Position numbers and translations under genes: made by a program
Shown here: in pieces, positions 1 through 55,648 of the stretch
Position numbering within the stretch: position 1 is the stretch's first letter
Layout of the letters: each line of letters begins with the position of its first letter
Notes under the pieces: model-generated
Databases searched by the model: none
Told to the model about the DNA's origin: nothing
What the model saw: only the letters and a program-made list of their open reading frames with translations
Source: Marsupella aquatica
Lineage: Eukaryota; Plantae; Marchantiophyta
DNA length: 64,000 nucleotides
Direction of reading: 5' to 3'
NCBI GenBank assembly: GCA_973895155.1
Contig: OZ316893.1
Span: 16,770,645-16,834,644 of the forward strand

Positions 1-111
1 GGGCACTTTCTGTTTCACGACAGCGGAAGGTGTTGTAGTGGAAGCCTTACGAGACAAATCCTTCTTAATGACACCTTTTGATACGGGTTTTGCTATCTCT
101 TCCACAATTGC

Positions 112-1166: not shown

Positions 1167-1514
1167 TTCAAAAGACCATGAATTGATGATTGGATTTCGG
1201 TGGCTAATAGTGCTTCGACTTAGCGGTTGCAGTAGGCACGGGTGGCTGAAACAAACATACGGGAATCCTAGGAAAGAACCAATACGGAAGATTTAGAACA
1301 GAGTCCAAGATGTCAAAACAAATGCCAAGATTTTATTATTCACAAAAATGGACAATCCGTCCAGAAAACAACTCATTCGACCAAAATGGACTTTGCCCGC
1401 TCGACTACCATCTTCTAAAGTTGGGGCACATATTCATCTGGGTGCCTCAAACTCCAACTAAACAACTCGTCTAGTACTAAGTCTTGACAGATGAGTTCTA
1501 GGGAAATGTCTCCT

Positions 1515-1962
1515 AGGCTGCTTCCTTCTTCAGCCTCTTGATAGTCTGGAGGTGGCCTTCCTCCTGGGCCGTCATGATAATCAGCTTCTTTATGAGCGTC
1601 TGTATCTGACTCTCATGGAGCTCATCAAGCTTGGCGGCCTCCTTCATCACTAGGCACAACTCCTGACATGTCTGAAGATGGTTCCGCTGAGCTCAAAAAT
1701 ATCTTCCAGCATAATCCTTTCTAATCAAACTAATCTCTTCATCTTTCTCCTTCACAGTTTCTCGCAGGGTCTCAAGTTCCTCGAGGACATCCTCAGTCAT
1801 TTGGGACTCCTTCTCATGTTTATCTTTGATCGATTTCAAATGTTTCAAGGCATTGTCGATTTGGCCTTCAAGGTGACAAATGAGCCTCAGGTGAGTAACA
1901 TGCTCTACACGAGAGTTGCGTGAAAGCAAATGGAAATGATATTTACTCCAACGCATTTTCAT
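1515..1962 (-). pseudogene. Coiled-coil ORF remnant, probably cargo of the Sola-like element
   Basis: ORF 1693-1962 (EDVLEELETLRETVKEKDEEISLIRK) continues in frame past a stop into KEAAKLDELHESQIQTLIKKL. It is flanked by the element's palindrome motifs. Confidence 0.3.
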
Positions 1963-3596
1963 ACGGAAGCACTGATGGGATGAGCATCGTCCGAGATCTA
2001 CAAGAGAGTTGCGTGAAGATAGAGATAAAATACGTCTAAAACTGATTCAGAGAAAAAGACTGAGGGTTACCTTCAAGCATGATCTGTGCGTTCACGGCAT
2101 AGTACTGGAGCTCATCTACACGAGTCTCGTGTAGAAAACTTAGTACTGGGTATTGCATAACACAAATAAATCTAATAGGATAATGTCTACACGAGACTCG
2201 TGTGGAAGGAACCGCTGAAATTTGAAATAAAAACAAACAACGAAAAGAAAAACTAAAGATCTACACGACTGTCGTGTGGAAATACCTTCAACTCTGGTGA
2301 AAGCTGCGACCGACATCTCCCGGACTTCCAATTCGGATAGATTCGCCATGAAACCTCTTCGCACGTGTGAAACAATTTGCAAAATAAGGACAAAATTGAG
2401 CAGAACTCAAAGGGAGAGACAAATGAGCAAAAGGGCGAAGAATGAGCGAGAGGGCAAAGATGAAGGAATGAGTGAATGAGCGAATCTCATTGAAATATAT
2501 AACTGATACGAGGAATGGGCGAGCGTGAAAATGGGCCAGTGTGAAGCGTGAAGACACCATTAAGAGCGCCGCCAAAAATATCCACGAATCTTACCAGACG
2601 ACAATCGTGTAGAGCTATCAGCCTGTCACATTCGAGCAGATGTGCTTATTATTTTGTCATTATCTGTTGTCATTATCTGACATGATTAATTGCGCCGCCA
2701 AAATATTGGAAAATCGGACCACACGACAATCTAGCAGAGCGGCCACCCTATCATTTTTGTCCATTATATTCGGGATTTCTATCTGGGAATGGTATTTATC
2801 GATTAGTCATCCTGATTCTCTAGTCCATTCTCTCGCCAGAGGTGAATGGTTCTGAGGACAAGTTCTGGCACTGGTGGTTTAGAGGACAGGTTTTGGCACG
2901 GGTTTGAGTCCAAGGACTGCTTCTGGGCGCCCAATCGGTACGTCCCTTCTGGGATTCCATTCCTGTGACTGTCTCATTCCTGTGATTGTCTCATTCTTGT
3001 CACTCTTGGAGAATGTTTTTTTAGGACAATTATTTGTACCTCATTTCTTTCAAAAGTTCTACTAAATAGGGGTACTGTAATAGGATATTTAGCATTTCAA
3101 GAGGAATTAGACCTCATTTCTTCCTTAACTGCCCTAATTTTAGAATTAGACTTCATTTCTTCTTAATTGAGGACGATTGAGGGTCCTGACATGGGTTATG
3201 TCTTGGTCTTGAGGAATTGGACTTCAATTGTAACACAATTTATCAGTTGGGTGGTTCCTTAATGTGATATTACATGGATTGGGGATTTGTACCCTGTTGG
3301 AATTTGTACCCTAATGGAATTTGTACACTGGTGGACCTTTTACCCTATTGGAATTTGTACCTAGTTGGACTTTCCTTCTCTCTTAGAGTGAAACATCGAA
3401 TAATAGTGGGTCCTTTCCTTACTTCTTGTGGGACTTTTTGTCATAAATGCATATGATTGTGATAATTCCGTTACTTTTGGGAGATGTTTAGACCTAAGCT
3501 GATGCTCTACACGAGGCTCGCCTAGCCATCGAACCTCCTTGAGTTTCCTTCCACTACCTGTATGCGTTAATAATTCTACACGAGCCTCGTGTTGAG
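1903..3596. repeat. Cluster of dispersed 21-bp palindromes, consensus TCTACACGAG-N-CTCGTGTAGA
   Basis: Perfect copy at 2115-2135. Variants at about 1904, 1997, 2186, 2260, 2594, 2719, 3506 and 3575; more occur beyond the copia insertion. Confidence 0.8.
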
Positions 3597-4669: not shown

Positions 4670-5859
4670 AAGCACTGACTACCTCGGATGTAGCAAAACT
4701 TGAGCTACCTCCATCATTGGAGGAGGTCAAAGACACTCTGTGGTCCTTTCCGGTTGATAAAGCACCGGGGCCTGATGGGTTAACGGCTGAAGTGTTCCGG
4801 AAGTGTTGGGACTTCATAAGTGATGATTTGTTGAGCATGATCCTTGCGTTGTGGAGAACAGGCAAATTGGCGGGCAATGTGAAGATGGGGATTATAAAGC
4901 TGATACCTAAGAAGGCGGATAAAAGGTGATTGAAGGATTGACGGCCCCTCACTATGCTCAATACGACATACAAGATCATCGCTTAACTCCTTGCCCGACG
5001 CTTAAAACCTCTGCTGAATCAATTGATAAGCACTTAGCAATCGGGATTCATCTCGGGACGTCACATTCTTGAGAACATTTCAACCGCGTGGCTTACATTG
5101 GATTGGGTCAGAATCAAGCAGCAAGAATCCTTGTTCCTCAAGCTCAATTTCGAGAAAGCCTTTGATCGGGTTAATCATTCTTATATATGGGAATCTATGC
5201 ACCTCCTAGGCCTGGGGAGTCACTACATCAGGCTGGTACGTTCACTTGTTACCGGGGCTAGCTCTAAGATTCACATTAATGGTCTTTTCTCTAAGGACAT
5301 CAGTATGTTGCGGGGAGTACGTCAAGGCTGCCCATTATCGCCTCTATTGTTTGTACTCTCAACCCAACCCTTCATGGACTTTCTCGATGGAGAATTAGCT
5401 CAAGGCACTCTGCGTGGTATTCAGATATCGGCTTTGTTGACGATCTATTACAAGTTTTTTGCTGATGACCTTGGTATGTTTATTCCTGCTACACTGGAGG
5501 ATTTCAATGGGGCCTGACTAGCTATTGAGTGTTATGAGCTGGCTTCGGGTGCCAAACTGAATCTGCGTAAGTCGACAGTAATTCCTTTGGGACTTCTAGG
5601 AGCGAGGTGTATCTCTTTGGTGACAGAGATAAGGCGGATTACTGATGTTCGGGAAGCAGGTACTTTTGCGACTGGCTGGATCTGGGCTGACAAAAGGGAG
5701 AGATTGACCCACTTTGCTCTCCCCAATGCCAGGGTTTATCAACTTGTGATGCCTAGACAGGAATCACTCGGCCGGTTAAGTGGGTAAAGCAGGAAGGCAC
5801 CCTAGGAACACCTTAGTATAGTGACAAAACAAGGAAAATATAAACAATTAGGGGCAACC

Positions 5860-8800
5860 ATGGAACCCGGGCAGAGGCCGGAGGTAAGGCTGAGGGTGAA
5901 AACCCGATTAGGGTTAGGGCGCGTTAAGCGTCGGTGGCTAGGAAGGATCAACGGGAAGAAGGACCGGCAGAGGAGAGGGGTAAGGAGCGCTTGCAGGAGA
6001 TGGTGGCTCATTTGCGAGCACGAACTAGGCAGACGACTACGGGAGGCCAACTACTGTCAGCTGCTTAGGCAAGCACTCGGGGAGAGAGTAGATACCGACG
6101 ATCAACCTAAGGAGGGTATGAGCAACGTCAATCAAGCGGCACATTTCTGGGGATGCCTGTTCGAACGGGCAACTGAGTACATCAAGACTTACGAGGACGA
6201 GGAGTCAGAAAGGGCAGCTCGAGAACGGCAGGAGCTCGCTCGATTGTGGGAGCTACAGAAGACGGCTTTCTTAGGAGGCGAACTCATCAAGGACGAGTTC
6301 CTGTGGATGCCTACTTCCAATCAACTCGACGATCTTCTGTTTTGCAAAGACAGCGTCGTCGGCATCCGAGAGGCCATCAAGAACTGCAACGACATACACT
6401 GGGAATTAAAGGGTAGCACGGAAAGGTGGACCCAGGCAACGGTGCTAGGAGAAACCTCCACGGCAGCAGAGATGAAGAGGAAGGGAGCCGTCAACGATGA
6501 AGCCACCCCGGCAAAAAGAACGAGGTCGGCGGCACCAAAGAAGCCAGCCGAGCAGCAGAGCAGGAGGCAGGGAGAAGCCGAAGAGGAGGAGGTCGATCCC
6601 ATCAAGGCCATTCCAACCAGGGATGACACCTGGAAGGGCTGGGCGGCAACCCTACCGGTGGAGGTGCAACTACATTTTGCACGGGAGGAGGATGCATGCT
6701 TTACGGCCATGCAGACCAAGAAGTACCAAGGCTTCATGGCCGGATCCGGCTTGGAGGCCTTTGTAAGATTACCATGGCTGAAGCCGGAGGTACCGGAGTC
6801 AGACCTATTAGAATTCGTGGGGTCATGGGAACCCGAGACCAATTGCACGAGGATATATGGGAAGGATTTCTATCTTACTCCCAAGGTGATTGCTGAAGTG
6901 TTTGGCTTGCCGATGGGCAATAGACCAAAGTTGATACCAGGAAGACCTTGCCTGACAAGGAGTTCCGGTCGTTCCCCGGGCCATCAACGAAGAATGGCTT
7001 CTTCCGGAACACCTGCACCAACCCGCACATAGGAGAGATGATCGACTTCTTGCGGGTGACCATGCATTGTAACTTGCCGAGGGCAGAGATCGGCAAGGCA
7101 CAGGTCTATCTGGCAGAAAGGCCAGACCCAAGCCGGGACTACAACGGGTACCTCCTCAACCAATTGAAGAAGATCTTAAAGGAGGAGCAGCAGGTAATCG
7201 GCATGGGGAGCGTGTCACGGCTTGGCTATCACATGCCGCTGTTGTGCCGGTATGCCAGAGGTCAGACTTTTGCCCCGGTACTTCCCCTGCAGGTAAGGGC
7301 ACCCGAGGAAGCTCCAACGCCGAGGCCGTTGGCTGAGAAGCCTCAACCACCTGTTAGTCCTACGATCGAGCAGGTGTTTAGGCCCAGGAAGGAAGACTTG
7401 CCGATGCAGCAACCAGGCATGCAGAGTCTGCTGAAACTACTGGAGAAAGAAAAGAAATCGGCATCGGCAACAACAACGGCAACGGCAACAATGCAGGACA
7501 CTACTACAGAGGTAGGCCTACACCGGCTCACAAGAGAAAACCCCTTTGCTGGAGACAAGGAGAGAATCAGGCCGGAATCCAAGCCAGGTGTTCGAATGTA
7601 CGTGGGAACCTCAAGCTCCGAATCTGAGGCAGAATTGCCTGAAGCTCCTACCGAGGAAGAGGAGAGGGAGAAGCCGGAAATCCAAGAGGTAGAGGAGGCA
7701 GTGGAGGACTGCAGCCATGATAATTCCGGCTATGGGTCGGACCATCACGTTCCAGGAGTAAGGACCTGTGGCCGGTTTGTCCCCACACTTCCAAGGGTAG
7801 TGCGAGGGGACCCCAACCAGCAGAGTAGCCCTGAGTCTCCCCCACCAGATGTTGCTCCCCCGAGCTTCGACGGCATAAAACAGACGGTGCAGGAATTTCA
7901 GGAGCGAATCAAGCAGGAAGAAGAGGCCGCCCTGGCTAAGGAAAAGGATTTACCAGGAGGAGATTGGCCGGAGGACATCAGGCGGCTAGCCGAAAAAGGA
8001 AGCAAACCTCTAGCCACGATTGAAGAGATCCGCAGGACGGCTTGGGAGCAGAGGCCACGATGGGCGATGCCGATCACTTCTACTTACTCCACCTACGCTA
8101 AGAATAGAGCCATGGAGTATGGTGAGATGTGTGGGGAACTTGCGCTCGGCATCTTTGGAGAGGAGTTGGAGGTAGGACCCTTTTTCCATAGGGAGCAGTT
8201 GGAGAAGCACCAATTAGAAGAAGCGGTGGCTTTAGAGAGAAGCAAGAAGGACGAGGTCATTCGGCGGCTTAGGAGGATGGGAGCCGAGATTGAAGATCTA
8301 AGGGCGGCCAAGAAAGCCCAAGATGAACTGCGGATTAAACGACATGAGCTGAACATCATGCAGGGGCAGTTGGACGCCGCACAGGCTGATAATCAGAATA
8401 TCAAGGATAAACTGACTCAGACGCAGGAAGAGTTGGCCGACACGATCAAAGAGAGGGAAAAGTGGAAGCAAGAGCTGAAGAATACAGAGGAGGCCCACAT
8501 AACAGCCAACAGCCGGGCCATGGTGGAAACCCAAAGAAAGGAATGGGCGTTGAAAGGGGAGCTCGAGAAAATCCGCGGAGCCCTTGAGCAGAAGGAGGTC
8601 GAGTTAGGGAAATCCTATCAAGGGATTATGGCGCTGCAGCAGGAGCTTGCGTCCCTAACGGCCAGCTTCAAGGCCGACCTAAGGGAGAAGGACGAGATGC
8701 TCGAACAGACTTACGCCAAGATGAACCAGATGGAGTCTGTCATCATTGCAGAGCTCGACAAGGAGCTAAGAGCAACCCAGGAGGAGAGGGCTACCTTGAA

Positions 8801-9506
8801 GAAGGAATTGGAGGAAGCCCACAGGGAGCAGGAGGAGGCCAAAAACGAGCTGGAGGGGGCACGTAAGGACCTGGATGAAACCCAAGAGGAGTTGGAGGAA
8901 ATCACGAGGAAGATGGAGAACCTACAGCAGCGGGCCGACAACCAAACAGAGCGGCTGAAGAAACAAGCCGCAGTATTTAAATGCTTAGCTGCAGCAGGTC
9001 CATCTCCTGTTGGGACAAACCAGTTACCAGGGGTGGTAATTGCCGAAGGACAAGCCGCGCCACCTGCACCAGTGCCGGAAGTAAGTGGGAAGGGGAAGGG
9101 ACCAGCTGCCGAGCCACCAACGAAGAAGAAGCGGAAACCTTCAGGGTCAAGGAGTAATACGACTTCACAGGCCGTGGTGATCAAGGAGGTAGACCCAGCA
9201 CCGACCCCAGACAGGGTCACGGCTAAGGATCCAACTACCCTAGGGGAAGGGGAGGCCGAAGCCGTGGGGGTGGCTGAAGCCGAAGCCGAGGGAGTGGCTG
9301 AAGCCGAAGCCGTGGGAGTGGCTGAGGCCGAAGCCGTGGGTATTGCCGAGGCCGGTGTCGAGGCTGAAGCCGAAGGTGGACCCAGTCAGGCCGATGGAGA
9401 GTTGACTCGGTCAAGGGCAGGTAATCTGTCAGTAGGCAGGCCAACGGCAGTGGCTGAGGAGGAAGTGTTGGGGGCGTCCATTGAGGATCCACCACCGGTG
9501 TCGTGA
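5860..9506 (+). CDS. ~1,215-aa LTR-borne protein (one 1-bp frameshift near 6922): Arg-rich N-terminus, PMD/Athila-ORF1-like domain, long coiled coil
   Basis: ORFs 5821-7032 and 6948-9506 join when the extra A seen in the second copy (ggcaataagacc vs ggcaatagacc) is restored. The ATG is conserved in both copies. EFVGSWEPET...LTPKVIAEVFGLP resembles the plant mobile domain core. Confidence 0.65.
9252..9375 (+). repeat. 24-bp coding tandem repeat (AEAEAVGV)n
   Basis: GCCGAAGCCG(T/A)GGG(G/A)GTGGCTGA repeated about 4-5 times. Confidence 0.8.
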
Positions 9507-11364
9507 CGGTGCAAGGGCGCCGTTCCTTTTAGGGAGGGCGGACGTGGAGGGAGGAGGCGTGAGTGGGCAGGGCGGGCGCGGATCTCCACGTTTAGGATTA
9601 GGATCAGAACCAGGAGCGGCCCTGACACTTAGCTTGTGGGATTGCGGTCCCACTGGTAGGAGCAACACTTGTGCTCCTGCCTTGCTGTACATAGGTAGAT
9701 TCGGGCAAGTAGATTACTGTTAAGTAGATTAGGCTTACGATGCAAAGAATGGCGGATCCACTACCAGGATAAGTACCTGGGCAGCGGGGAGCTCAGGGCC
9801 TCTTCTTTAGCAAGTTTTTAGTTTGCACCAGCCGGGCTGGGATCAAGTAGTACGAGAAGCTCTCGGTTAGTCATACAGTGACCCTTGTGTATATTCATGT
9901 TTCCTCATGCCTAAGAGCTGAATAGAGTTGGCCTCACGGCTTAGTTCGCAGAACTTGTGTATGAGATGTACTGTTTGTATGGCAAGTGCATGGTATGACT
10001 CAGTCAGAATGAGTCATTTTGCTATTTGTGTGTCGCATTAACTTGTGTGAAGAGTGCCCACATCAACAGAAGGAAGGAAAGTAAGCAGGGGAGTGAGAGT
10101 TGGATGTGTCGAGCTGAGAGAGGTCTTAGCGGCTTAACCAAGCCTATTGGGGATCATTCCGGCGGCGGAATCCAAACATACCTAACAAGACAGAGGGGAA
10201 GACAGGGGAAGACAGGGGAAGGCCTATATTAGGCCGGCTACGTATCTCATGACCCGATGAAGGATCTGTCCAGTATATGTGTGTAAAATGTTAATAGTAG
10301 TAGTAGAAGGTTAGCAGCGTCCCATGCCGCTAAGCCGCGGAAACGGCCTCGCCAAGCACGAAACCTGCGGGAATCGGCTTGAGCTGGGGGGTTTCTTGGG
10401 TTTAGGGAGCCATGGGACGCACCACACAACTGCTCTGCACGAAGGGCAATGAATTCAACAGACTTAATAGAATTTGGTCCTTACAGCTTTCTGACCGGGA
10501 ATGGAGCCACCTCTTGCACTCACTGTGGTCTTCTGATATTCCTTCAAAGTCTCGCACTTTTCTGTGGAGAGTGATTGCACAGGGACTGTTCACTAACGTC
10601 CGGGCTTCCAAAATGGGGAAAAGTGATGGTACTTGTGGTCTGTGCAGTTCTATGCCTGAGACCATTCCACACATTTTCTTCACATGTACGTTTGCACGCA
10701 AAGCATGGGAACTAGTTGCCCGGACTTTTCCGGATCTGATCACTTGGCCTACCATGGGTCTGAAAGCTCTGATGGACGCTTTCTCTGGACACAGTCTTGC
10801 ACATTCATTGATAATCTTTATGGTGTATCATGTTCTTTGGCACTTGTGGCTAGCACGGAATGACAGTGTCTTCAATAATGGTAGAAGGCGCAGCTTTGAC
10901 CTGCTTAGGATATTTTCGGAGATAATTGACCAGCTTCATGGCCTGTGTGAGGACTCTGGCCCCAGCAACCGGCGCACTCGGATGCTACGGACTAAGGAGG
11001 AATCTATTAAGGAATGCTTGATATGGGTTCCCCGTCCGGAGGCTAGATTCTCAGTATCTTAGTTTTTAGTTCCTTAGTTCCTTCTCTTAGTCTCTCCGGG
11101 CTTAGGGCTTCTGCCCTTCTTGGTTCTCGCATCTTGGTTGGGTTCCCTGGCTGTGACTTGCTGGCGGAACTGGGAACTGGAGACCGTCATCTTCTGAGGG
11201 ACTATGGGCAGACTGGTTCTAGAAGTAGCTTTGCGTTGCTTATCTTTGTCTTTCACTCCCTTGGCTTTTGGCCTTCCCTTCTGAGGGTCTCATTGTTGCC
11301 TTTTGGCTCCCTTTCCCGTAGGGGTTTGCGGGTTTTTTTTGAAAAAAGAAGAAAAAAAGAAGAA

Positions 11365-14300
11365 GACTTTACGTAGCCATAAACACTCATGACTTGCGTC
11401 GTAGAGAACAATTATTTCAGAGTGATTGGAAGAAGTAGTAGTAAGAGTCTGTTTGGTGCTGCGCCATGAAATTGGTGTCGGGCCCATCAAGAAAATATAT
11501 CCAGTTTGAGATTTACCATCTTGTGGATCGGATAGATAGCCAGCGTCAACATATCCTGTTAAACTGTAATCTGCATCATAAGGAAAGTATAATCCAAAGT
11601 CGGATGTACCAATAAGATAACGGAATATCCTTTTAATACCGTTCCAGTGTCTGATAGTGGGTTGTGCGCTGTGTCTTGCGAGTAAGTTGACCGCGAATGC
11701 TATGTCTGATTGAGTTTGATTAGATAGAAACATAAGAGCACCGATAGCCGAAAGGTATGGCATATCTGAACCTAGTAAAGGTTCAAAATCTTCTCTCTTC
11801 CTGAACATATCTTTTTGTATATCCAAGGTACGTATATCCATGGGGGACTTCACAGATTTTAACGAGTCCATATGGAAATGTTTTAACACCTTCTTTGTGT
11901 AAGTCTCTTGATGCAGGAGAATGCCCGTTTGTAAATGTTCAAATTGAAGTCCAATGCAGTAAGAAGTTCTTCCTAAATCCCGCATTTCGAACACGCATTT
12001 CAGCGTTTGTATAGATTCTTGCATCATCTTGTTTGTACCAAACAAGTTGAGGTCATCTACATTAATAGCAATTATTATGAATTCAGGTCCTTGATTCTTT
12101 ATGAATAGACAAGGCGCAATCTCTGAATTTTTGTATCCCATGGATATCATCTCTGTTTTGAAACGCTGGTACCAGGTACGTCCACTTTGTTTTAGGCCGT
12201 AGAGTGAACGAAGAACCTGAATAGCAAATTGGGTCGTTCTATTTCCAGGAGTTTCCTGGAATGCAATTGCTTTAGAGGTATTGTGGAGTACCAGCTTATT
12301 TAAGTAGTCAAATTCATTTGCATGTTTGTTACTATGCATATTTGAATCATGATTTGAATTCGCATGGAAATTGACACGTTCTATAAGCTGTGGTGGAGCT
12401 TCCATATAGATCACAGTGTCAAGTTGACCATAAAGATAAGCGGTCACTACATCTAGTTGATGCATTAAGAGTTTATGTTGGATTGCAAATGCTATCAAGT
12501 AGCGGTAAGTAGTTACATCCATGACTGGTGAATAAGTTAGGTCATAATCTGTGCCATAGATTTGAGTATATCCCTTTGCAACGAGTCGAGCTTTATATCT
12601 CACAATTTCTCCTTGGGAATTCCTCTTTTTGGTAAATATTATTTTGTACCCTATAAGGTGTTGGTCTGGGGTAGCAATGGTTATAGGACCAAATACTTTT
12701 TGAGAGATCAAAGAGTCTAACTCAGAGTTCATGGCTATTTTCCATTTAGGCCAATCTGTTTGGTTTTGTGCTTCTTGGACAGATTTTGGGTCAGGTAAGT
12801 TAGTAATATCCTGTGATATATGAAAGGCAAATTGATCATCAGGTATTACTCTAGTTCTATCTAAGATATGGCCAGTGGTAGTATAATGTATGGCTATCTC
12901 TAGGTGATATGATTCTGAAATGTGAGTATGGGTTTCTGGTCTCATGTCAGATGATGTTGGTAGTTTTCGCCTTTGTTTGAGTTGTTTATCGACAGCCCCT
13001 ACAGGGCGTCCTCTCTTGGGTTTTAATTGTTGATCAGAAGCTAACCGAGTTTCAATTTGAATCCGGGATGGGGTATTCGCTGCTGGGATATGGGATTTTG
13101 TAACATTCGCTGTATTTGCGAATGAAGCAGGTATGGCTTCCATAATCTTTGTAAGTTGAATTATTCTTCTGACTTCTAATTCAGCCTGATCTGTGCGTGG
13201 ATCAGGACAGAGTTCAGGACTAGCTTGCCAGGTGAATATTTTTGGTAATGTTAGCTGTTTGCCCTCTGGTAATGTCAGAGTGGGGAAGATGGTTTCATAA
13301 AAGTGACAATCTGTAAATTGAGCTTTGAATATGTCTGCAGTGGTAGGTTCCATGTAACGGATGATTGATGTAGAGTCGAATCCCACATAGATGCCTTTTC
13401 TTCTCTGAAGTCCTAATTTTGTCCGTTTTGGACCTAGGATTGGTACAAGTACTTGACATCCGAATATCCTCAAGTGTGAAATGTCTGGAGAATTTCCAAA
13501 TGCCAATTGATGAGGTGTAATGCTGTTGAAGGCTGATGGTCTGTATAGAAGAAGAGATGCAGCATGTAGGACTGCGTGTCCCCATGCAGTCGTTGGAAGA
13601 GAAGATTGCACTAATAGAGGTTGGGCTATTTGCTGTATGCGTTTAATAAGTGACTCGGCCATTCCATTCTGGAATTGTACATAAGGTACATTGTATTGTG
13701 AATCAATTCCATTGATGAGGAAAAATTCATCAAAAGTTTTCGATATGAACTCTCCCGCTCCATCAGTCCTGAGGGTTCGAATTGGGTATTCTGGGAATTG
13801 AGCTCTCAGCCGTATAATGTGTGCCAGAATCCTTGAGAAAACGAGGTTCCGGGTTGATAATAGGGAAACCCTTGACCATTTGGAGCTTGCATCTATGACG
13901 ACCAGGAAATAGCGGAATGGGCCACTGGGAGGATCGATGGGTCCGCAAACATCTGCATGGAGTCTCTCAAGAAATGCAGGTATGTGATTTTCGGTTTTAG
14001 AATTGGAGGGAGCAGTAATCATCTTGCCCTGTGAGCAGGCAAGGCATGGTCCTTTGAATGTTCTAGGATGTACTTCTTTTGATACTCCTTTAGAATTATT
14101 GACAATTCTGTGGAACATGCTTGTTCCAGGATGTCCCAACCGTCTATACTAGATCTCTGTGAGGTTCTGTGATTCAGTTTGAACATGGTAGCATTGAGTT
14201 CGAGTTGCATAGTATCCTAAAGGGTAAGCCTGTAAAGTTTCTTTAACAAGTCTGCCTTTTGATGAGTGAGATACTATTTGTAGAACTTCTCGTGAGTCTT

Positions 14301-15664
14301 GAATATCTGTATGAATATGTAGGTTATGTGCTCTTATGTCTTTAAAGCTGAGAAGGTTTCTCGTTGCTTTGGGGGCATAAATCACTGATGTGATGTTGAT
14401 TATTGTTCCTTCTGGGAGAACTACTGTGGCTTTGCCATGATCCTCCTCTATTTGATGTGGTCCCATGATAGTTGTTATTTTCCTTTGTGAAGGGGTGATT
14501 TCATGGAAATATTTACTATCCCGAAGGATAGTGTGGGTTGTGCCGCTGTCGACAATGCAGAAATCTGGATCTTCAATATTTAATGATGAATCCAGCATAT
14601 GTATTTCTGGTATAATCTCTGGTGACTCCAAATAAGCCCCATGAGCTTCGAATTGCGATTCATCCAAGCTCTTCTTATAAAGTAGAACTAGGTGGCTAGG
14701 TGCATGGCATACCTTTTTGGTGTGCCCTTTAGTTCCGCTGCACCTGTTGCATGTAATGGGATGCTCTTGTTTATAACTTGAGGTAGGTCTTTGTCGCTCC
14801 CGATTTTGTTGTTGATGATCCACTCTGTTACTCTTCCAGTTGTTTCGATTCACATTGTTCATTCTTCCACGACCTCGTCCTCTATAGTTTGAACTGTTTC
14901 CACCTCTTTGGGAGAAATTACCTCTCCCTCTCATTGTTCCTCGGCCACGGTATGAACCTCTCCCCCTCGATGTGTATCCATTCGTATTTGTCATATTTGT
15001 TTCTGCTGTCATATCCTGTGTAACTAAGTTGGTTTCAGTTTTGGTTGGTACAGGAAGTGTTCCAGGAGGTCTCTCCTTTGCATTGTTCATAAGGAGGATG
15101 GAATTTTGCTCTGCTAAAAGCATATGAGCAATGAGCGCCAAGTATGTTGTAAATGCCATGTTCCTGTACTGATTTGAAATCACAAAGTTAGTTGGGTGAA
15201 ATGTGACCAATGTCTTCTCGATTTGCTGTTTATCACTGCTCGATTTGCTGTTTATCACTGACTGGTTCTCCACACATTTGGAGTTCATTTGAGATTCTTA
15301 ACATCTCATTGTTGTATAAATCTACTGATTTGAAATCTTGTACTCGTAGAGTAACCCAAGCCTGTAGAGCATTTGGCAGATTTATTGTAGTGATATGCTC
15401 GAATCTCGATTTCAATGCATCCCAGAGTAATCTAGGATTGTATACAGTCTTATATTGGCGTTTGAGAGGATCGACTAAGTGATGTCTCAGTAGTACCAAG
15501 GCTTGTGCCTTTGTGTATTGATCCACACCGACATCTGTGTGTATGGCCTCTTCAATTCGTTTTGCCGTGAGATAGACCTCCACATCTATATACCAATCAT
15601 TGTAATTCTTACCATCTATTTGCAAAGCTGGAAATATAAGTTTTTCGATGGAGTTTGATGTCAT
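11365..15664 (-). pseudogene. Copia gag-pol (gag, zinc knuckle, protease, GAG-pre-integrase, integrase, RT, RNase H)
   Basis: CNRCSGTKGHTKKVC knuckle, CIVDSGTT protease, LGHPG, integrase, YKARLVAKG, SLYGLKQSGRTW, NVDD, GYVDAGY. Disrupted by a stop at 14149-14151 and a 22-bp tandem duplication near 15217-15260. Confidence 0.93.
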
Positions 15665-19000: not shown

Positions 19001-19503
19001 TATTTGTTGGCCACCGCTCGGAGCGAGAAAGGTCAATATTCTCCCCACTTGAGGATATTAAAATGGATACATTTGTTATTCTTTGTCCAACAGATGAATT
19101 CGAACAAACAGTTCCCCTTCGATTCTGGCTAGGAAGAGCCATGGATTGCATTGTGTGGGTTCCGGATGATGCTCATGCTGGGGAGTTTGAGGTGGAATGG
19201 TGGAGACCTGTCCATCGAAAATCGTCTGTCCCAGACTCTGAACGATATCGGGATTGTTTCAATTCTAAACAGTCCTGGGAAGTTGATCCAAATTACCAAA
19301 GTCCTACAATCCAACACGACTGGCTCCTCGCAACGTCTACAATCAATGGCTGGAATTCAAAGGCAAAGGGTAAAGTGAAAGTTCCAGTTCATGTTCTTGA
19401 AAGCGTGAATGCATACATTTCCGAGAACTTCTTAACGAAGTGTTTGTTTCTGCACGAGGCTCGCGTAGGGCCTCTTCGTTTTGCCTTACCAAGGAAGGTT
19501 TAG
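16091..19503 (+). pseudogene. Sola-like DDD transposase (DUF7869-type) with extra N- and C-terminal domains
   Basis: Same-frame ORFs 16091-17089, 17282-18334 and 18380 onward, broken by single stops, then a frameshift to 18949-19503. Motifs FAKCDLC, SVIHDKMDQAK, HLQLDNSGKDNKN, FLMVGHTHEDVDAFFS. Confidence 0.75.
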
Positions 19504-43518: not shown

Positions 43519-46500
43519 TGTGATGCCTAGCCAGGAATCACTAGGCCAATAAGATGGTAAACCCGGGTGGTATATACTAAATCACATTAGTATAAGGAGG
43601 AAAAACAGGAATTAAAATATAAACAATTAAGGGTAACCATGGAACCCGAGTTGAGGCCGGAAGTAAGGGTGCAGCGGCAACCAACGAGGCACAATTAGGG
43701 TTAAGGTATGCTAAGTACAGGCGGCTATGGGTAATCAACGGACAGTCAGGCAACGGCAGCTAGGAGGGGGGAAAGGATTGTTCACCAAGGATGGCAACTC
43801 ATTTGCAAACATTGATCAAGCAAGGGATTGTAACAACTGTCAACTGCTTAGACAAATATTGTGGGTGGAAGCAAATACAAGATGGGAATGAGCAATGTCA
43901 ACCAAGCCGCACATTTTTGGGGATGCCTGTTCGAACGGGCAACTAAGTACATTGGAACATACGAGGATGAGGAGTTGGAGAGAGCAGCCCAAGAACAACA
44001 GCAGATTGCTTGGCTGTGAAAACTCCATAAGTATGCCTTCCTCGGAGGAGAGCTCATCAAGGCTGAATTTTTGTGGACGCCTACTACCAACCAGCACGAC
44101 AACCTCTTATTTTGTAAGAGCATAATCGTTGGCATCCAGGAGGCCATCAACCATTGCAATGATGAACATTGGGACTTGAAGGGTTGTATGGAGGCGTGGA
44201 CAAAAGAAACAGTGTTGGGAAAATTGTCAAGAGCGGCCAAAATAAAGAGAAAGATGACCAACAACAAAGAAGCCACACCAGCCAAGAGAACAAGGTTGGC
44301 AACGTCTAGAAAGCTGGCCAAGCAGGGGAACTAGAGATAGGAGGAGGCCAAGGAACCAGAGGTTGACCCAATCAACGCCATCCCTACAAGGGATGATACA
44401 TGGAAGGGTTGGGCGACGGTCATACCGCAGGCAGTGCAATTATATTTTGCACGAGAAGAGGATGCATGTTTTACAGCCATGCAGTCTTGAAAGTACCAAG
44501 GCTTCATGGCCGGATTTGGCTTGGAGACCTTTGTTAGATTACCGTGGCTCAAGCCGGAGGTGTTGGATCATGGGATCACAAGGAAAATGTAACCAGGGTA
44601 TATGGGAGGGAATTCTATCTCATTCCCAAGGTGATTGCCAAAGTATTTGGCTTGCCGATAGGCAATAAGACCAAGGTAGACACCCGGAAGAACTTGTTGG
44701 ATAAGGAGTTTAGGTCATTTCCTAGGCCATCAATGAAGAATGGCTTCTACTAGAACACATGCACCAACCCGCACATTGGAGAAATGATTGATTTCTTGCG
44801 AATGACAATGCATTGCAATTTGGCAAGGCTGGAGATTGGCAAGGCACAAGTCTACCTGGCAGAGAGGCCAGACCCAAGCCAGGACTACAACGAGTACCTC
44901 CTCACCCAATTGAAGAAGATCTTGAAGGAGGAACAACAAGTGATAGGCCAGAGTCGCGGAACTCGACTACCTTAACACTTAGCTCCGGCATCGCTGACTC
45001 CGACGCTGAGCTCGCTTATGGTCCAGGCCCGGATAGGCCATCCGGGGTGGACTTAGCATAGGGAGACTTGTGGGCAATGAGACGTGGCACTAGCAAGGCA
45101 AGGAGCCAAGCTAGGGGCACACACTAAGGACTCGGACTAGCCGATGGCTGGTTGGGTCAAGGGGAAATGGGCCGGGCTCAAGGATGGCCATCCGGACCTC
45201 CAGATGGACTTTGAGTTCTGAGGACTTGGGAGTGAGCTCCTCTTGGGCCCAAGGCCAATGGAGTTGACACCATTGGCAACGGACGCTTGGGGTGCAAGTT
45301 GTGGCCCGATCCGAGTTGGGTCAGTCGGGGGCCCCAAGCGGCGATCAGACCTGAGGGCCTAGGCATGAGCGCACTGGGTCGGCCCGGTCACAACAGGCTA
45401 AGGCACTCTGCTTGCGGATGCCTATCAAGAAAGTTATGGGAGTTGCTAGTTGGTGGCGCGCCCATTATGCGCGATAGGATCCGGGTTGGGGGCCAAATGA
45501 TTAGGGACCAAAGTTGGTCCGGGGGTGGGAGGTCTCCAGAAGCATATATGAGGGGAGTGGTGTCTCCCTAGGGGCCAAGGGCGAGCCGAAGTCATGAGCC
45601 ACGGTGGTCGCGACACTATGGGAAACCGCCAAACAAAAATGGCGATATCTTCCCAACGAAAGTCCGTTGGAGGACTTCTTAGGTGCGTTGGAAATCTCTT
45701 GAGAAGGGCTATGCCCTCCTGAGCTCAACTGGGTCTGGGGGTGCCCTAGGTTCTTGTGGTTGGCGGGTGTTAGCTCGCCCGCTTGCCAAATCCTGCCGAA
45801 TAGCAACCAAGCCACGTTCGGTCTCCCAAGGGAGCTTGCATTGGGGAGGCAAGGCCAAGTAGGTGTGGAGGTTGAGTTCCAAGGGTGCTCGGCTCCTAGA
45901 CCACCAGTGGGGCAAACCAGGAGCGGTTGCTAGAGTCGGGGCCATTCTGGTCCCAACGTGTCAGGGCGGTCAGGGCGGTCAGTTGGTGATGGATAGATAC
46001 AAGGGGGAACCCAGGCCGCACCCAAGGAAGGAGCTGTTTTGGATGAACAGTGGGCGTGGGTTCTGGTTCCGGCTTATGGCATTGGGAGGACCTATCATTG
46101 ACCTATTTACCAACGTCTGTTGAGCTTGAGTTAGGATGCTAGACTTGTTGAGTTCTATATCTTGAAGGGTTACTTACCGAGGTGCTTGGTTGCTTGTGCA
46201 GATAGGGAGGACCGTTGAGTAGCAGTCGTGTTAGAGAGCAAGTGTGGCTTTGTATGGGAGGGGCTGCTGGCGGTGCAAGGGGCACTAGGTTGCTTGCTCG
46301 AGGTATTCCGTGGAGGCGTTCGGGCACCAAGGGCACTTAGGCGTGAGTGCTGGGATTGGTGAGGGCGCTGGGTGGTAAGGTCCACCACTGCCAGGGGAGT
46401 GTGTCCCGACTTGATTATCACATGCCACTATTGTGCCAATACGCCCGGAGTCAGACCTTTGCACTAGTACTTTCCCTACAGGCAAGGGCACCAAAAGAGG

Positions 46501-48182
46501 AGTTGGAGCAGAGGCCGGCAGCAAGGAAGCCCAAATCGCCTGACAACCCCACAATAGAGCAGATCTTTAGGCCGAGGCCGGAATCCACGCCAATGGAGCA
46601 ACCAGCCATGCAAGACCTTCTGCAAATTAGCAGAAGGAGAAGCCGGCAGCTGTAGCGTAGGTACCGGTATAGGGCATTGTTCAAGAGGCAAGCATAGGAA
46701 GGCCCACAAGAGTAGATCCCTTTGTCGCGGCCGCGCAGGGTAGGAGGCAAGAAGACAAGCCTGAAGTGTGGATGTACGTGGGAGCCTCAAGTCTGGAACC
46801 TGAGGGACAAGGGCCCAAGGTTCCGAGTCACAATGGGGAGAGGCAAAGGCGGGCGTGGGAGCAGGAGCAAAGGCCAACACCCATGCGCAGCTTTCAGCAG
46901 GAGGCCTCGTTCACAGCTAGTTCTCAAGATGACCCGGAGGAACCGGTACTCCAAGCCGGCAGGGAGGGCATGGAGGACTACAATGATGAGGACTTTGGCT
47001 ACGGGTTGGATTGTCCTATACCAGGGGTGAGGACTTGTGGCCGGTTCATCCCCACATTGCCGAGAGTGGTTTGTGAGGACCCAAGACAACAGAGAAGCCC
47101 GAAGTCTCCCCCACCAGACGTCCCTCCTCCAAATTACGATGGGATGAAACAGGCCGCATAGGAGTTGCAAGAGCGACTCAAAGATCTGGTGGAGGCAACC
47201 CTAGCCAAGGAGAAGGATTTACTAGGGGGAGGATGACCATAAGACATTTGGCAGCTTGCCAAAGAACAAGCCGCCCCCTACCCACGTTTGACGAGGTTTG
47301 AAAGGTGGTGTGGGAACAAAGGCCGCGTTGGGAGATGTCGGTCTCTCCTAACCACTCCACATATGCACGTTGCAAAGCCCTGGAGTACGGGAAGATGTGC
47401 TGATTACTTGCCCTTGGCATCTTTGGGGCAGAGATGGAGACGGGGCCCTTTATCCAAAGGGAGATGTTGGATAAAATCTGGTACGTTGGAAGAAGCAGTG
47501 GCCTTGGAGAGGATGAAGAAGGAAGAGGTCATTCGGTGGCTTAGAGAGAAGGAAGCCAAGTTTGGAGATCTAAAGGCAACCAAGTAGGCTCAAGATGAGC
47601 TATGGGTTAGGAAGCATGAGCTTAGCATTGTGCAGGGGCAACTGGATACATCCAAGGCTGATAACAAGTTATTCAAGAGTAAACTTGCCCAGACCCAAGG
47701 GCAATTGGCCGAGGTGCTCAAGGAGAAGGAGAAGTGGAAGCGAGAGCTAAAAGATGTAGAGTCAACTCACATAATGATTTGCAACACGGCCATGGTGGAG
47801 GCACAGAGGAAGGAGAGGGCACTGAAGGGGGAGCTCAAAGATCTCTGCAAAGCCTTTCAACAAAAGAATGCTGAATTGGATAGGACCTACAGGGGTGTTG
47901 ATCAGCTGAAGGAGGATCTCACAACCCTGTCGGCCAACTTTCAAGCTGACCTGCATAGGAAGGACAACATGCTCGATCAAACCTATGAGAAGATGAACAA
48001 GATGCAGTTTGATGTCATCCACGAGCTCAATGCGGAGCTGAGAGCAACCCAGGAGGAGAGGGCAGCCTTACGGAAGACGTTGGACAAAAATGAGAAGGAG
48101 TTGGAGGATGCTCACGGGGATTTGGACAAGACCCAAGAGGAGTTGGAGGACACCATGCGGAAGATGGAGAACTTGCAGCGGC
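43519..48182. mobile_element. Second, older copy of the protein-coding LTR-like unit, truncated on the right
   Basis: Starts TGTGATGCCTAG like 5745. Colinear homology with 5745-8935 (LFCK.S..VGI.EAI, MIDFLR.TMHCNL, RATQEERA) with many stops. Confidence 0.88.
44952..46389 (+). mobile_element. 1,438-bp solo LTR with AG..CT termini
   Basis: AGTCGCGGA...TCCACCACT with 5-bp TSD GCCAG (44947-44951, 46390-46394). The host frame VIGQ|GSVSR is restored on removal. The 3' end matches the LTR next to the PBS at 26674. Confidence 0.88.
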
Positions 48183-51100
48183 TACCTGGGAACTCCTCAA
48201 ATCATTGTTTGTCAAGGAGTTTTGACCCATTGGAACCTCGGAGTTGGCAGTGCTGAAGTTAGGACGACTTCCCTTCAAGGAAAACAAATCCTTTAGGAAG
48301 TTCTTGCAATGCTTCCAAAAGTTGGTAAGACGTACAAAAACCAATGCATCGGAAGGTATGCAACTTCAATGGTTGGTAAATTCTTTACCGCAGAAGATGA
48401 GTTTTGCAATTAGGAAGGAGAACTTTGAGACCTTGGCCGACGCAATTAGGGATATCCAATTATATATTAATGCAGATATTACAAGCCAAAAGAAACAATT
48501 TAAATCTGAAAGCTCATCATCTAAGGAAGGATCGACCAAGAAAAAAAATTAAAAATCCTAAGAAGTCGAGAAGTGACAACTCAAGCTCGGATAGTGAAAG
48601 TAGCACTTAGAGTGAATCATCTTCTAGCTCTGAGGAAGAAAAATCTAGGAGAAAGAAAGTCAGGAGGGGGAAGTTGAAGGTCAAAATAGAGGCTAACACT
48701 CCAACTCTAGATAACCTCGTAGCTCTTACCGACCAGTTGCGGGCTATCATAGCAGAAGCTAAGCCAAAGAAGAAGGTAGTCGTTGAGGACAGCTCTGTAT
48801 GATGTGATTTATGTTACAATACCAGACACCATAAAGATGAATGTCCTAAACTAAACTCTAGTCATGTCCGGCAAGTTATCGAGACCAGGCAATGTCAAGG
48901 AGAAGTAGAGTACTTCCTAGGGGATGAAGCTAATAGCATTTTTGGCATCAATGAGACATGAGGACAAGATCTGGCCAACCGCCCTGCATCCCTCTAGTCA
49001 GGGTTAAGAAATAACCCGGGCAAGATGTATCCACAATCATCCAAAATCCATTTGTGGCTCTTGGGCCAAACGTACAGAGATTTGCGGCATGCTATAATTG
49101 TGGTCAACCTAGCCATTTTGCTAGAGAGTGCCCAAATGGAAGGAAACAAGGCGATGGGCAGCCAGCTCAGTTATGTATGCGGGTATGTATGGGATGCCAA
49201 CAGGAGGGTCACATGCTAGGACAATGTCCTACTTGGTTGGCAAGATTGGCCACAAATCACAAAATCTTGCCGGTCAAGGTCCCACCACCAGGCACTGCAC
49301 CAGGTGGAGTTCGAATCAATCACATTGAACTAGGATGGCAAACAGATGCCGAGGCCAAGTTTGGACCATCTGATGACAAAGCCGAGGCCTTATTGACGTT
49401 CTCAGAAGAGGAACTGGACCACGACTGCTACCGTGTTTCTACTCAATCAACCAGAAGGAAAGAAAGGTGGGATGGTCTGGCCAAGAACAAAGGGAAGGGC
49501 AAGGAGGAAAGGGTCGACGTACTCTTCATCAACATCAACGGAGGGAGAAGGGCTGGCAACCTAGGTAAGCCCTGAGCTCACTAGTGAGCCCAATCCTTCA
49601 CAAGATAGTGATTTCAATCGAGATCACCCCAAGTTGTTCTACCCTTCCATTACGGCCAGTGTTAAGGAAAAACTTCGGGAATTGGAAACATTGGAGAATA
49701 CCAAAGCAATAGCCAAGGATGTCAAAAGAGCCAAAGCGCTATTTGCTTTGGAGAACCCTACTTCTGTGCAACCCAGCGTTCAAAAACAAGCCAAAGCCAA
49801 GAGAGAGAAACTGGCAGAAGAGAAACCGGTAGTTCCCTATGACTTGGCTAAGGATGTACTAGAATCTAGAGTCTCGGCAACAATAGGTCAACTTTTGAAG
49901 AATAGCTTGTACTTCCAAAAACAGTTAAGGAAGGCAATACTTGGCAAGCCATGATTACCCAAGGTAGCACCCAGATCCGACATGCTGATGATAGAAGAGG
50001 ATCAAGGAGCCCCACCGCTACCATTAATGATTCAAGAAGAATTATTACTATGTGTACCCATTGATGGAGGATCAAGGGTATGTATTATGATTGATTCAAC
50101 AGCAATAGGGTGGGGTTTAACATCGGAGATAACTGGAAGAGTGTTGAACATGGCTAATGGCTATCAGGTTATTCCCATGGGAGTCCTCACTGACATTAAA
50201 ACTGAGATAGGAGGAGTCTTGTTTAGTATCAACTATGTTGTAATGAAATTGGTGAAGCCTACATCGTTCAGATTACTGATTGGCAAGCTGTGGTTCTACC
50301 TAACCAAAGTGATAGAGGATTGGGGGAAGAAAGAATTCACTTTTGAGACCCTCACTATCACGGTATCCTGGGACACCATGGATGACGGGGGGAAGAGTAT
50401 CCGAGAAGTAGACGGGTACAACAGTGGGCTAGAGTTTGCTGATTAGGTATGTTGGCTAGAATGCCTCACAGCCCTGACCAAAGAAAGTGTCTTTGGACCA
50501 GATGTACCCCCCAACGGACTTTGGCAAGAGCCAACATTTGGAGAGTAGTATGGAAGAGGAATGTGATGCAGAAGCAGAGGACTGCTTCACCATAGAGTCC
50601 ACTTTTGTAGCTTCAATTCCAGAGGAATCACCAAGGGATATTTGGTTAGATAATTTGACTAAGAGGGGAGCAGCACCTTAGGTATTGGATTTTAAATGGG
50701 CATTGTGGTAGGGCCGACAGGATCCACAATGCCGGCTATCATCAGCAACCAATTAACTGCCAAGATTTCGGCTTACGGGGCAATCACCAAGGCAAAATAG
50801 ATAGAGGCACTATTGGAAGCCGGACAAGTCCAATGGCCAAAACCTCAAGAAGCAAGAAAAGATGAGGTCAACCCTATCAACCCAGAGCCAGGTCAAAAGG
50901 AGAAGCCGACACCTAAGCTACAGAATCTGAGGCCAAACATTACGGAAGAGGTAAAGTCCTTGGACGACAAAAGAATCAAGTCAGCAGACTTGACTAGTAC
51001 AACCAAGATTCCAGTCTATGGAGGGATGAGACTTGAGAGGCTGGAAGCCAAACTAGACCCAAATTTGAAAAAATAGATTAACATGATCCAAGCACGACAA

Positions 51101-52407
51101 TACTGCAAGCTTGACCTAAGAGAAGGCAGGGAATTGAACTTGGGAAGGGATTTAGCACCTGAGCTAGAGAAGGAGATCAATGAGTTACTGATTGAATTTC
51201 AGGATGTGTTTGCATGGAGCCACCAAGACCTACAAGGAGTAGACCCAAAATTGGGGGAACACCAAATTGATCTGATGTTAGGCGCCAAATCGTTTAGACA
51301 GCCAATTTGTAGGATGAACCCTAAGTACTCCTTGATGGTCAAAGCGGAAATTGACAAACTAGTTGAAGCAAGATTCATCACCCCAGTCCTACATTTGGAC
51401 TGGGTATCCCCAATTGTGATAGTTCCCAAGAAATCTGGACCAGATGGTAAACCCAAGATACGGGTTTGTCAGGATTACAGGAAGTTAAATGAAGCCACGT
51501 TGAAGGATCATTTCACATTACCCTTTATTGATATGGTCCTAGACATGGTAGCCAGTCATGAGTTATACTCATTCATGGATGGATACTCTAGTTATAACCA
51601 AATCAGGATTAGGCAGGAGGACCAAATCAAGACGGCGTTCATCATAGAATGGGGGATTTACGTCTTCAATCAAATGTCGTTTGGACTCTGTAATGCACCA
51701 GCTACGTTCCACAGGTTGATGGTAAACATTTTTCATGACTACTTGAAAAAGTTCATGGAGATCTTCATTGATGATTTTGCAGTGTTTGGGAAAGCATCGA
51801 AACATGCTAAATACCTCAAGGAGACCTTCATGAGATTTAGGGAAGTGGGTCTCAAGTTACACCCTAATAAATGTTTCCTTGGAGTAACGGAAGGTGTGCT
51901 ACTTGGTCACAAGGTATCAAGGAAAGGTATTGAGATTGACAAAGGTAAGCTAGCAATATGGCTGGATATCATGCAACCTAAGAACATAAAGGATGTTCGA
52001 TCCTTCTTGGGGTGCATTGGCTATTATCGCAAATTCATCAAGAATTTTGCCAAACTAGCTTTACCATTGACAAATATGCTCACGGCAGGAGCAGACTTCA
52101 AGCCCACACCAAAAAAGGTGACAGCAATAGTTGAATTAAAGCAGATGCTAGTTGAGGCCCCAATCATGATAGCACCAGACTGGAACAAGGATTTTCATGT
52201 TTATGTAGATGTCTCAGGTTTTTGTATCGGTTCAGTATTGAGTCAGCTGGATGAGAACGGAAGGGACCATACCATATACTATGCAAGCCGAAAGCTTGCC
52301 GATGCCAAAGGAAATTACTCAACCACCGAAAGGGAGGCATTGGGAGTCATTTACTCCTGTAAGAAGTTTAGGCATTATCTACTGGGTTACAAGGTGATCT
52401 TTCTGTT
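48183..52407 (+). pseudogene. Non-chromovirus Ty3/gypsy (Athila/Tat/Phygy-like) gag-PR-RT-RNase H, degenerate, no integrase
   Basis: Knuckles CYNCGQPSHFAREC and CMGCQQEGHMLGQC, VPIDGGS protease, DVFAWS, WVSPIVIVPKK, DGYSSYNQI, FGLCNAPATF, FIDD, YVDVSG, YSTTEREAL. Confidence 0.9.
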
Positions 52408-55606: not shown

Positions 55607-55648
55607 GAAGGCATCTGTCGGGGAAGGTAGTCGACATGGATCGACGGA

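Follow-up and report, generated by a model that had tools for sequence, protein, structure and literature searches.

In a 64,000-nucleotide window of the liverwort Marsupella aquatica (the whole stretch of DNA analysed), we describe a high-copy, integrase-type insertion that we lean toward reading as the solo LTR of a Ty3/gypsy element of non-seed plants, with an accessory gene in sense orientation in its U3. That the gene sits inside an LTR is very probable, and its sense placement in U3 is probable. Plant retrotransposon LTRs are usually regarded as non-coding. The kind of gene, a plant extra ORF, is familiar; its placement inside an LTR would be what is new.

The 4,682-bp plus-strand unit begins with TGTGATGC and ends with GCACCACA. 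A sequence-only reading of the window had reported TG..CA termini, a terminal inverted match of 7/8 bases and a CAACT target site duplication, all of which we confirmed in the sequence (Table 1). The insertion target is ORF2 of a LINE, whose reading frame carries on across the duplication. Contigs lacking exactly 4,687 bases (the unit plus one duplication) occur in three of four runs, with other LINE copies a possible source, and contig joints lead from the exact ends at 5745 and 10426 into the interior of other copies. Summed depth over the unit in run X1 was 2.5e5-1.5e6, versus 138-154 for host-gene pieces; the copies number on the order of thousands, a figure that comes from this summed depth and is overcounted.

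Neither a terminal direct repeat nor a long TIR is present within the unit, and its two ORFs gave no Pfam match to gag or pol, as the earlier reading had maintained. That reading had also named longer inverted repeats and a transposase as signs of a DNA transposon; the former are missing, and no DDE transposase was matched in Pfam. A related explanation, that the unit is a whole non-autonomous gene-carrying element mobilised in trans by an integrase-like DDE transposase, would fit copies seen only lone or truncated, contig depth that is flat across the unit, and the absence of an evident PBS-like loose end at 10426 (35 contigs, agreement 0.38). However, it must accommodate an inverted match that extends to just 7/8 bases, a unit that encodes no transposase, a probable homologue of its gene in the gypsy element L001, and a second copy that adjoins a gypsy gag-pol, and we judge it very unlikely.

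Table 1. Features of the unit and of its second copy, in window coordinates
Feature	Position	Strand	Remarks
Left target site duplication, CAACT	5740..5744	+	in LINE ORF2; empty site in contigs
TG..CA unit of 4,682 bp, likely Ty3/gypsy solo LTR	5745..10426	+	high copy across full length
TATA-like box, 95 bp inside the LTR	5839..5844	+	common to copy 2; likely promoter for the gene
Accessory gene, about 1,129 aa, 72% of unit	6118..9506	+	frameshifted near 6921; dN/dS 0.21 vs copy 2
Conserved N-terminal segment	6118..6450	+	no family found
Globular domain across the frame break	6601..7310	+	probably homologous to the L001 extra-ORF family (modelled fold VANC21-like)
Long predicted coiled coil	8202..8996	+	basic KKKRK stretch and tail of 18/24-nt repeats after it
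Non-coding end of unit, putative promoter/R/U5	9507..10426	+	TATA-like site 10225; 35-nt motif 10150-10184
Right target site duplication, CAACT	10427..10431	+	same 5 bp as left side
Copy 2, older and decayed	43519..48182	+	1,438-bp nested insert; one-off deletion junction at 48182
Ty3/gypsy gag (from mid-gene), CCHC knuckle, RT-RNase H	48183..52403	+	same strand as LTR gene; likely the internal region of copy 2

The coding content of the unit differs from its first description as a single ORF of ~1,215 aa that makes up ~78% of the unit and starts at ATG 5860, 115 bp from the end. Two ORFs are present, of 390 aa (5860-7032) and 822 aa (7038-9506): near 6921, this copy lacks one base that copy 2 and contigs in all four runs have. 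Furthermore, the stretch from 5860 to 6110 holds five non-triplet indels between copies and has no third-position excess (0.40/0.30/0.28), and the TATAAA at 5839 is common to both copies. Thus, ATG 5860 is probably not the true start. The likely one is ATG 6118, from which the gene occupies 72% of the unit. The ratio dN/dS between the unit gene and copy 2, which the earlier reading had put forward as a check, was 0.21 (bootstrap 0.16-0.26, 978 codons) and rose to 0.85 and 1.17 when the frame was shifted; the gene has been under purifying selection.

The diverged second copy noticed at 43519 in the first reading is genuine, with 69-73% identity to unit positions 1-3187. Seventeen X1 contigs continue unit-like past 48182, and thus the junction of copy 2 at that point is a private deletion. 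Beyond it lies a same-strand gag-CCHC-RT-RH stretch with a motif that we take to be gag, a presumably protease-like segment, and no INT match ahead of RT. Copy 2 likely runs through the deletion into its own gag-pol, a continuation that the sequence-only reading had overlooked. Because the region contains at least three nested insertions, this gag-pol could also be a separate nested element. Pieces of gag/pol that are 80-87% like copy 2 reach roughly one quarter to one half of the depth of the unit, a weak figure from two runs in which the host is seemingly a trace. In a quick RT tree of 98 rows, none of them a reference element of Phygy, Selgy, Athila or Tat, the copy 2 RT fell among rows from the liverwort Calypogeia (support 99) and away from the Athila-like rows of seed plants.

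These observations support the proposal of an integrase-made, gene-bearing, solo-LTR-like unit. The antisense option that came with it is less probable than a sense gene. We prefer a sense gene in U3 because copy 2 joins a gag-pol on the same strand and because the homologue in L001 lies sense behind integrase. None of 160 related loci showed an element of this clade with both LTRs, so that the status of the unit as an LTR is one that we infer. No PPT or PBS was seen adjoining the unit's own ends, and a PPT|TG-like motif appears in its relative L001 only.

If the LTR instead lay on the minus strand, it would have a short U3 near 10426 and a transcript start near 10200, with the gene antisense in a 4.4-kb R/U5. 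Such an arrangement would resemble a Retand/Grande antisense ORF shifted into the LTR, and the gag-pol next to copy 2 would belong to a different, nested element. Consistent with this possibility, the TATA-like site at 10225 is readable on both strands and on the minus strand has behind it a CT-rich tract together with an AG|GTAT splice-donor-like site that recurs in a unit at 52404. Upstream of the TATA site, the plus-strand sequence is TG-rich and resembles a 3' end. Passages of PMC7264820 and PMC11963269 describe antisense extra ORFs with coiled coils as common in Tat/Retand. Yet this arrangement requires two events in copy 2 rather than one deletion, and the L001 homologue is sense to pol. 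The units at 5745 and 52404 have in common the 35-nt motif and a hairpin, which the gene strand of either unit forms but the opposite strand of only one; its stability is no greater than that of shuffles. Altogether, we regard a minus-strand LTR as improbable. Separately, the ORF of the 52404 unit matches the 5745 unit weakly (E 6e-4) but has no family-profile match, and its homology is unproven.

The gene has a probable counterpart in L001, which carries RT-RH-INT in gypsy order and falls in the same broad clade as the copy 2 pol. The integrase stop of L001 is followed after 76 nt by a PPT|TG-like boundary, then by a TATA box, and then by a sense 606-aa ORF comprising the domain, a coiled coil and a Pro/Ser tail, with repeated 8-9-mers upstream of the ORF; the LTR start is placed here by one motif, and the far end lies beyond the contig. 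Against the L001-family profile, the unit domain scored 11.9 bits (best of 300 shuffles, 2.4), and hhalign gave 65.6% (107 columns, E 5.8e-5; best of 30 shuffles, 2.0%). When 160 proteins were searched with phmmer together with 160 reversed decoys, each of the top 25 matches was forward. Pairwise BLAST of the unit protein with L001 was not significant, and the profile score of either half of the domain alone was within the shuffle range. Judging from this modest match, the unit domain is probably homologous to the L001 extra-ORF domain and is likely a member of an unnamed family that numbers 695 proteins; the library-wide search used the L001 domain as query.

No Pfam match to PMD or DUF1985 was found among 89 members of this family, and one of the 89 matched PF20167 (E 0.005). 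The unit protein had no significant Pfam match, including to PMD, Transposase_32, ATHILA and DUF1985, and a seed profile scored 3.2 bits (best shuffle, 1.8). A resemblance to Transposase_32 noticed by eye was dismissed when profile comparison gave it a 1% probability. With the C-terminal half and the second half of the domain as queries, word-index searches of proteins returned no matches. L001 alone carried the domain among the 160 related loci, and no relatives were found in viral contigs.

A structural comparison suggests what the domain may do. Of 48,161 chains compared with the model of the L001 domain (pLDDT 95.8), DNA-bound VANC21 of Arabidopsis VANDAL21 matched best (9lnk; Z 6.4, rmsd 4.3, 189/206 residues), with a score that falls in the range the comparison tool calls common and that concerns the relative's domain, not the unit's protein; the runner-up chain reached Z 2.2. 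Single-sequence folding of half of the unit's own domain gave a pLDDT of 39. Foldseek on PDB and BFVD, and a second look with VIA, returned nothing. VANC is structurally similar to MAIN/PMD and oligomerises through its coiled coil, according to parts of PMC13547354. Portions of PMC5418596 place PMD in gypsy elements and assign the same fold a function in silencing in MAIN/MAIL1, and PMC5735166 characterises VANC, in part of its text, as the product of a Mutator-like DNA transposon of dicots that binds tandem motifs. The accessory protein would resemble VANC21 and the MAIN/MAIL1 PMD in the predicted fold of its L001-related domain and in its coiled coil. Unlike VANC21, with which identity at the structural match is 12% and no sequence-level match was found, its unit has no evident tandem target arrays, the tandem-motif search having returned only one 10-nt triplet (10194-10223).

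On this modelling, the accessory protein is predicted to be DNA-binding, with a VANC/plant-mobile-domain fold. We see an even chance that it acts on DNA or chromatin, and a specifically anti-silencing function is rather unlikely. Alternatively, and with a probability only slightly short of even, the same anatomy may serve another role: a tether that targets integrase, an accessory factor for nuclear import or RNA handling, or a scaffold of the particle. A long coiled coil with basic stretches would suit many nuclear roles, the VANC/PMD fold works in silencing in MAIN/MAIL1, and roles like those of retroviral accessory proteins have been proposed in reviews for the extra ORFs of plants (in passages of PMC7264820). 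CpG depletion is similar in the ORF (0.65) and in a host exon (0.63), and thus composition shows no sign of protection. Against these other roles, the sole clear structural match is a DNA-bound, sequence-specific anti-silencing protein, and an env-like role is unlikely because the protein has no transmembrane segment.

The arrangement that we favour, with a sense gene in U3, would give a full element the layout LTR(gene)-gag-pol-LTR(gene). The gene would be driven by its own TATA box, and genomic RNA would start near 10255. Since U3 ends up at either end of the element after reverse transcription, each full element would carry the gene twice, and LTR-LTR recombination would leave one copy, as may have happened at 5745..10426. 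The globular domain is predicted to bind the family's own DNA, the coiled coil to oligomerise the protein, and the protein might then counter silencing in trans by analogy with VANC21 and VANDAL21. The full scenario, in which U3 of a bryophyte Ty3/gypsy clade acquired an anti-silencing gene of the VANC fold and thousands of solo LTRs would stay gene cassettes with the ability to unsilence the family in trans, is speculative, and we consider it unlikely as a whole.

Genes within U3 are familiar from vertebrate retroviruses, namely MMTV sag, HIV/SIV nef and foamy virus bel/bet, which lie sense in U3, are present at either end of the element and persist in solo LTRs. The unit gene would resemble them in these respects and in likely having its own promoter; the retroviral ORFs and LTRs are much shorter, and the proteins are unrelated. 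Among plant elements, the closest comparison is with Athila ORF-1 (PF03078), Transposase_32 (PF20167), Ogre PMD (PF10536) and Retand TRP28 (PF04195), with which the unit gene shares an accessory ORF kept across copies, a globular domain with a coiled coil, and linkage to a non-chromovirus-like pol. In contrast to these, it fills most of a TSD-flanked unit and has no significant Pfam match. Passages of PMC6317226, PMC7264820 and PMC11963269 describe these extra ORFs of non-chromovirus Ty3/gypsy elements in plants as lying between the LTRs, and parts of PMC6317226 give LTRs of up to about 5 kb in this group. Our literature searches turned up no plant extra ORF inside an LTR, a point for which the eORF tables in PMC6317226 may be relevant. 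Phygy of moss and Selgy of spikemoss are likewise non-chromovirus gypsy elements of non-seed plants; they are short, and the polyprotein occupies nearly all of the internal part (PMC6317226, in part).

The role of plant extra ORFs is called an open question in a passage of PMC7264820, and the fold link to VANC21 would make one such function directly testable. If our reading is true, solo-LTR formation, otherwise the dead end of recombination, would strip gag-pol yet retain the accessory gene. In the full anti-silencing scenario, an LTR-encoded counter-defence would outlast the host's main removal route, and sequence-specific anti-silencing would reach from DNA transposons to retrotransposons. 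Pipelines that scan for extra ORFs only on the upstream or downstream side of the polyprotein could overlook such LTR genes or annotate them wrongly. As to distribution, the terminus pattern of the unit had 0 matches in metagenome contigs. Horizontal transfer was considered for the traces of the unit in X3 and X6, where the host gene is either missing or 85% similar, and was set aside in favour of a low-level presence of the host.

The unit, the 4,682-bp TG..CA-ended sequence listed in the table, is a real insertion of the integrase type. Its ends, the CAACT duplication, and empty-site contigs bear out the sequence-only reading, which had proposed an integrase-made insertion with a target-site duplication. 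It contains no long inverted repeat or terminal direct repeat. The target was a LINE ORF2, whose RT frame reaches the left CAACT and whose zf-RVT part resumes after the right one; with the unit removed, one frame of the LINE has 2 stops, versus 19 and 25 in the other two. Contigs that skip exactly the unit and one duplication are found in three of the four sequencing runs compared (X1, X2, X3, and X6), and further contigs link the exact unit ends with the interior of additional copies. Summed X1 contig depth is 2.5e5-1.5e6 over the whole unit versus about 600 on the LINE flanks, and pieces of a nearby HMA-domain host gene have depths of 138-154. Such summed depth is not a copy number, and the unit's copies can be put only at an order of magnitude, that of thousands.

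Features of the window, in window coordinates
Feature	Position	Strand	Details
Unit	5745-10426		4,682 bp; start TGTGATGC, end GCACCACA, CAACT on either side
Ty1/copia gag-pol remnant	11290-15288	-	
ORFs with DUF7869	16148-19132	+	probably a DNA transposon
HMA-domain host gene exon	36588-37451	-	low-copy control for depth
Copy 2, diverged second copy of the unit	43519-48182		decayed; nested 1,438-bp insert

The single long ORF claimed earlier is not found in the window copy, which instead has ORFs of 390 aa (5860-7032) and 822 aa (7038-9506). Near 6921 the unit is one base short relative to copy 2 and also to contigs in all four runs, the extra base being present at full depth in X3 and X6 and in a share of the depth in X1 and X2. 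Because copy 2 and the contigs have this base, we consider the family gene continuous and the window copy broken. Between the unit and copy 2, dN/dS is 0.21 (978 codons; bootstrap 0.16-0.26), compared with 0.85 and 1.17 in the shifted frames and 0.78, 1.34, and 0.33 in the antisense frames, the last being an in-register mirror with more stops. A TATAAA at 5839 is common to both copies, and the 250 bases downstream of ATG 5860 differ by five non-triplet indels and have no codon pattern. The gene likely starts at ATG 6118, giving about 1,129 aa, or 72% of the unit. Its protein comprises an N-terminal segment that is conserved, a globular domain that spans the break, a linker rich in Pro and Glu, a long coiled coil, and a KKKRK stretch, with no transmembrane segment.

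We infer that the unit is an LTR. At 48182, copy 2 passes out of frame into what we take, from its motif, to be mid-gag, followed on the same strand by a CCHC knuckle and RT-RNase H. This junction is a private deletion, because 17 X1 contigs continue there as the unit does. The simplest reading is that copy 2 and the gag-pol are one element lacking its 5' LTR end, PBS, and gag start, and the gene would therefore be sense in U3. Possibly the gag-pol is instead a nested stranger, as the region is dense in insertions. In X3 and X6, where the host is apparently present only in trace, gag/pol pieces 80-87% like copy 2 reach about one-quarter to one-half of unit depth, a ratio loosely compatible with two LTRs per interior plus solos. 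Independent support for a sense gene in U3 comes from the sequence of L001, one of 80 metagenome loci, in which RT-RH-INT (54% to the window RT-RH) is followed by a purine tract and TGT 76 nt past the stop, a TATA box, and a sense 606-aa ORF; its far LTR end lies beyond the contig. A repeat screen of the metagenome loci of at least 5 kb among the 80, and a domain screen of all 160 loci, returned no two-LTR element of the clade. The antisense ORF suggested by the sequence-only reading would place the LTR on the minus strand. The TATA-like site at 10225 is indeed readable on both strands, and on the minus strand it is followed by a CT-rich tract and a site resembling a splice donor, but the same-strand gag-pol behind copy 2 and the sense ORF in L001 argue for the sense orientation.

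The RT beside copy 2 best matches the liverwort Calypogeia fissa (62-64%). A quick tree built on 98 rows, after 23 of 120 matches had been left out for short coverage, places it with the C. fissa rows and away from seed-plant Athila-like rows. A leafy liverwort is the likely host, and the element is probably a non-chromovirus Ty3/gypsy. In plants, extra ORFs with PMD (the plant mobile domain), Transposase_28, or Athila ORF-1 domains are described as common in this group, and its LTRs as reaching about 5 kb (PMC6317226). Reviews place extra ORFs in the internal region (PMC7264820, PMC11963269), whereas the unit's gene lies within the inferred LTR. Searches of a largely open-access literature listed no description of an ORF inside a plant LTR or of a liverwort or moss case, nor any of retrotransposon anti-silencing of the kind considered below. 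A Tekay extra ORF is reported to resemble dsRNA-binding proteins, in a paper that leaves undecided whether such ORFs act epigenetically (PMC12844716).

In regard to the protein's identity, searches of Pfam and of PDB sequences and two word-index searches gave no match for the unit's protein. A search with the L001 domain gave 695 relatives at E<=0.001, none with an informative name in the 20 clusters looked up; by a crude test, 27 of 28 long family members have a coiled-coil-like stretch. If X is put at the break, the unit's domain reaches 11.9 bits on a 110-sequence profile, where the highest of 300 shuffles reaches 2.4; hhalign against the L001-domain family gives 65.6% across 107 columns (best of 30 shuffles, 2.0%). 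When phmmer was run on 160 proteins mixed with 160 reversed decoys, its top 25 matches were all forward. Because pairwise BLAST between the unit's domain and L001 gave no significance, homology of the two is likely rather than certain. The predicted L001 fold (pLDDT 95.8) gave no Foldseek match; a structure search across 48,161 chains gave just two at or above Z 2, an unrelated one at 2.2 and, at the top, VANC21, the Arabidopsis VANDAL21 anti-silencing protein, bound to target DNA (9lnk; Z 6.4, rmsd 4.3, 189/206 residues, 12% identity). Modest when taken alone, this model-based match gains weight because the whole domain is covered and because published texts liken VANC structurally to MAIN (PMC13547354) and assign PMD, the domain of MAIN, to gypsy elements (PMC5418596). 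VANC is reported to bind short tandem-repeat motifs and remove methylation (PMC5735166). The unit shows no evident array of this kind.

The full element would likely read LTR(gene)-PBS-gag-pol-PPT-LTR(gene), in which a promoter of the gene's own, placed at U3's left end, would drive its transcription, while genomic RNA would start near 10255. Retroviral U3 genes include sag, nef, and bel/bet. Reverse transcription would duplicate U3, and LTR-LTR recombination would leave a solo copy still carrying the gene; both are established LTR biology, applied here by extension. The protein is predicted to be a nuclear, oligomeric DNA-binding accessory factor, with countering of its own family's silencing as the favored role. 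The chances of a DNA or chromatin role are about even, and those of anti-silencing are clearly below even; its function is a testable lead.

Several neighboring elements and other loci deserve mention. A third TG-ended unit (52404-54019) is inserted in RNase H, where X3 contigs carry on as RH. A minus-strand ORF remnant in it, made up of a helical part, a Pro linker, and a coiled coil, is accompanied by 600 bases of non-coding sequence, a similar end, and a 35-nt motif in common with 10150-10184. This third unit may represent a further family of LTRs that carry genes; homology of its domain is unproven. The high-copy 1,438-bp insert at 44952-46389 (AGT..ACT ends, 5-bp duplication GCCAG, empty site in X1 and X2, related end at 26674) resembles a solo LTR whose termini are not TG..CA. 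At 41117-43518, a high-depth stretch holds an ORF that is presumably gag-like, judged by its motif, then a decayed DNMT3-like methyltransferase (best PDB matches DNMT3A, E 0.09) that copy 2 interrupts within the PC motif. Dnmt3 is reported to be carried by gypsy in Klebsormidium (PMC5890265), and a gypsy-borne DNMT3-like gene in a land plant would be of interest in its own right. The 54020-63600 region, likely a large DNA transposon, has ORFs on the minus strand, among them a Ulp1 protease (PF02902), and tandem arrays of 40/41, 44, and 169 bp with a common GAGA-rich core. In L001, repeated 8-9-base words at 2560-2830, upstream of the extra-ORF TATA box, are a candidate VANC-like target array. 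Plant-type gypsy gag-pol also occurs within two prokaryote genome records, L087 (6818-11347), where it directly abuts bacterial genes and the assembly is likely chimeric, and L098 (679-5722), where two sense ORFs lie upstream of gag.
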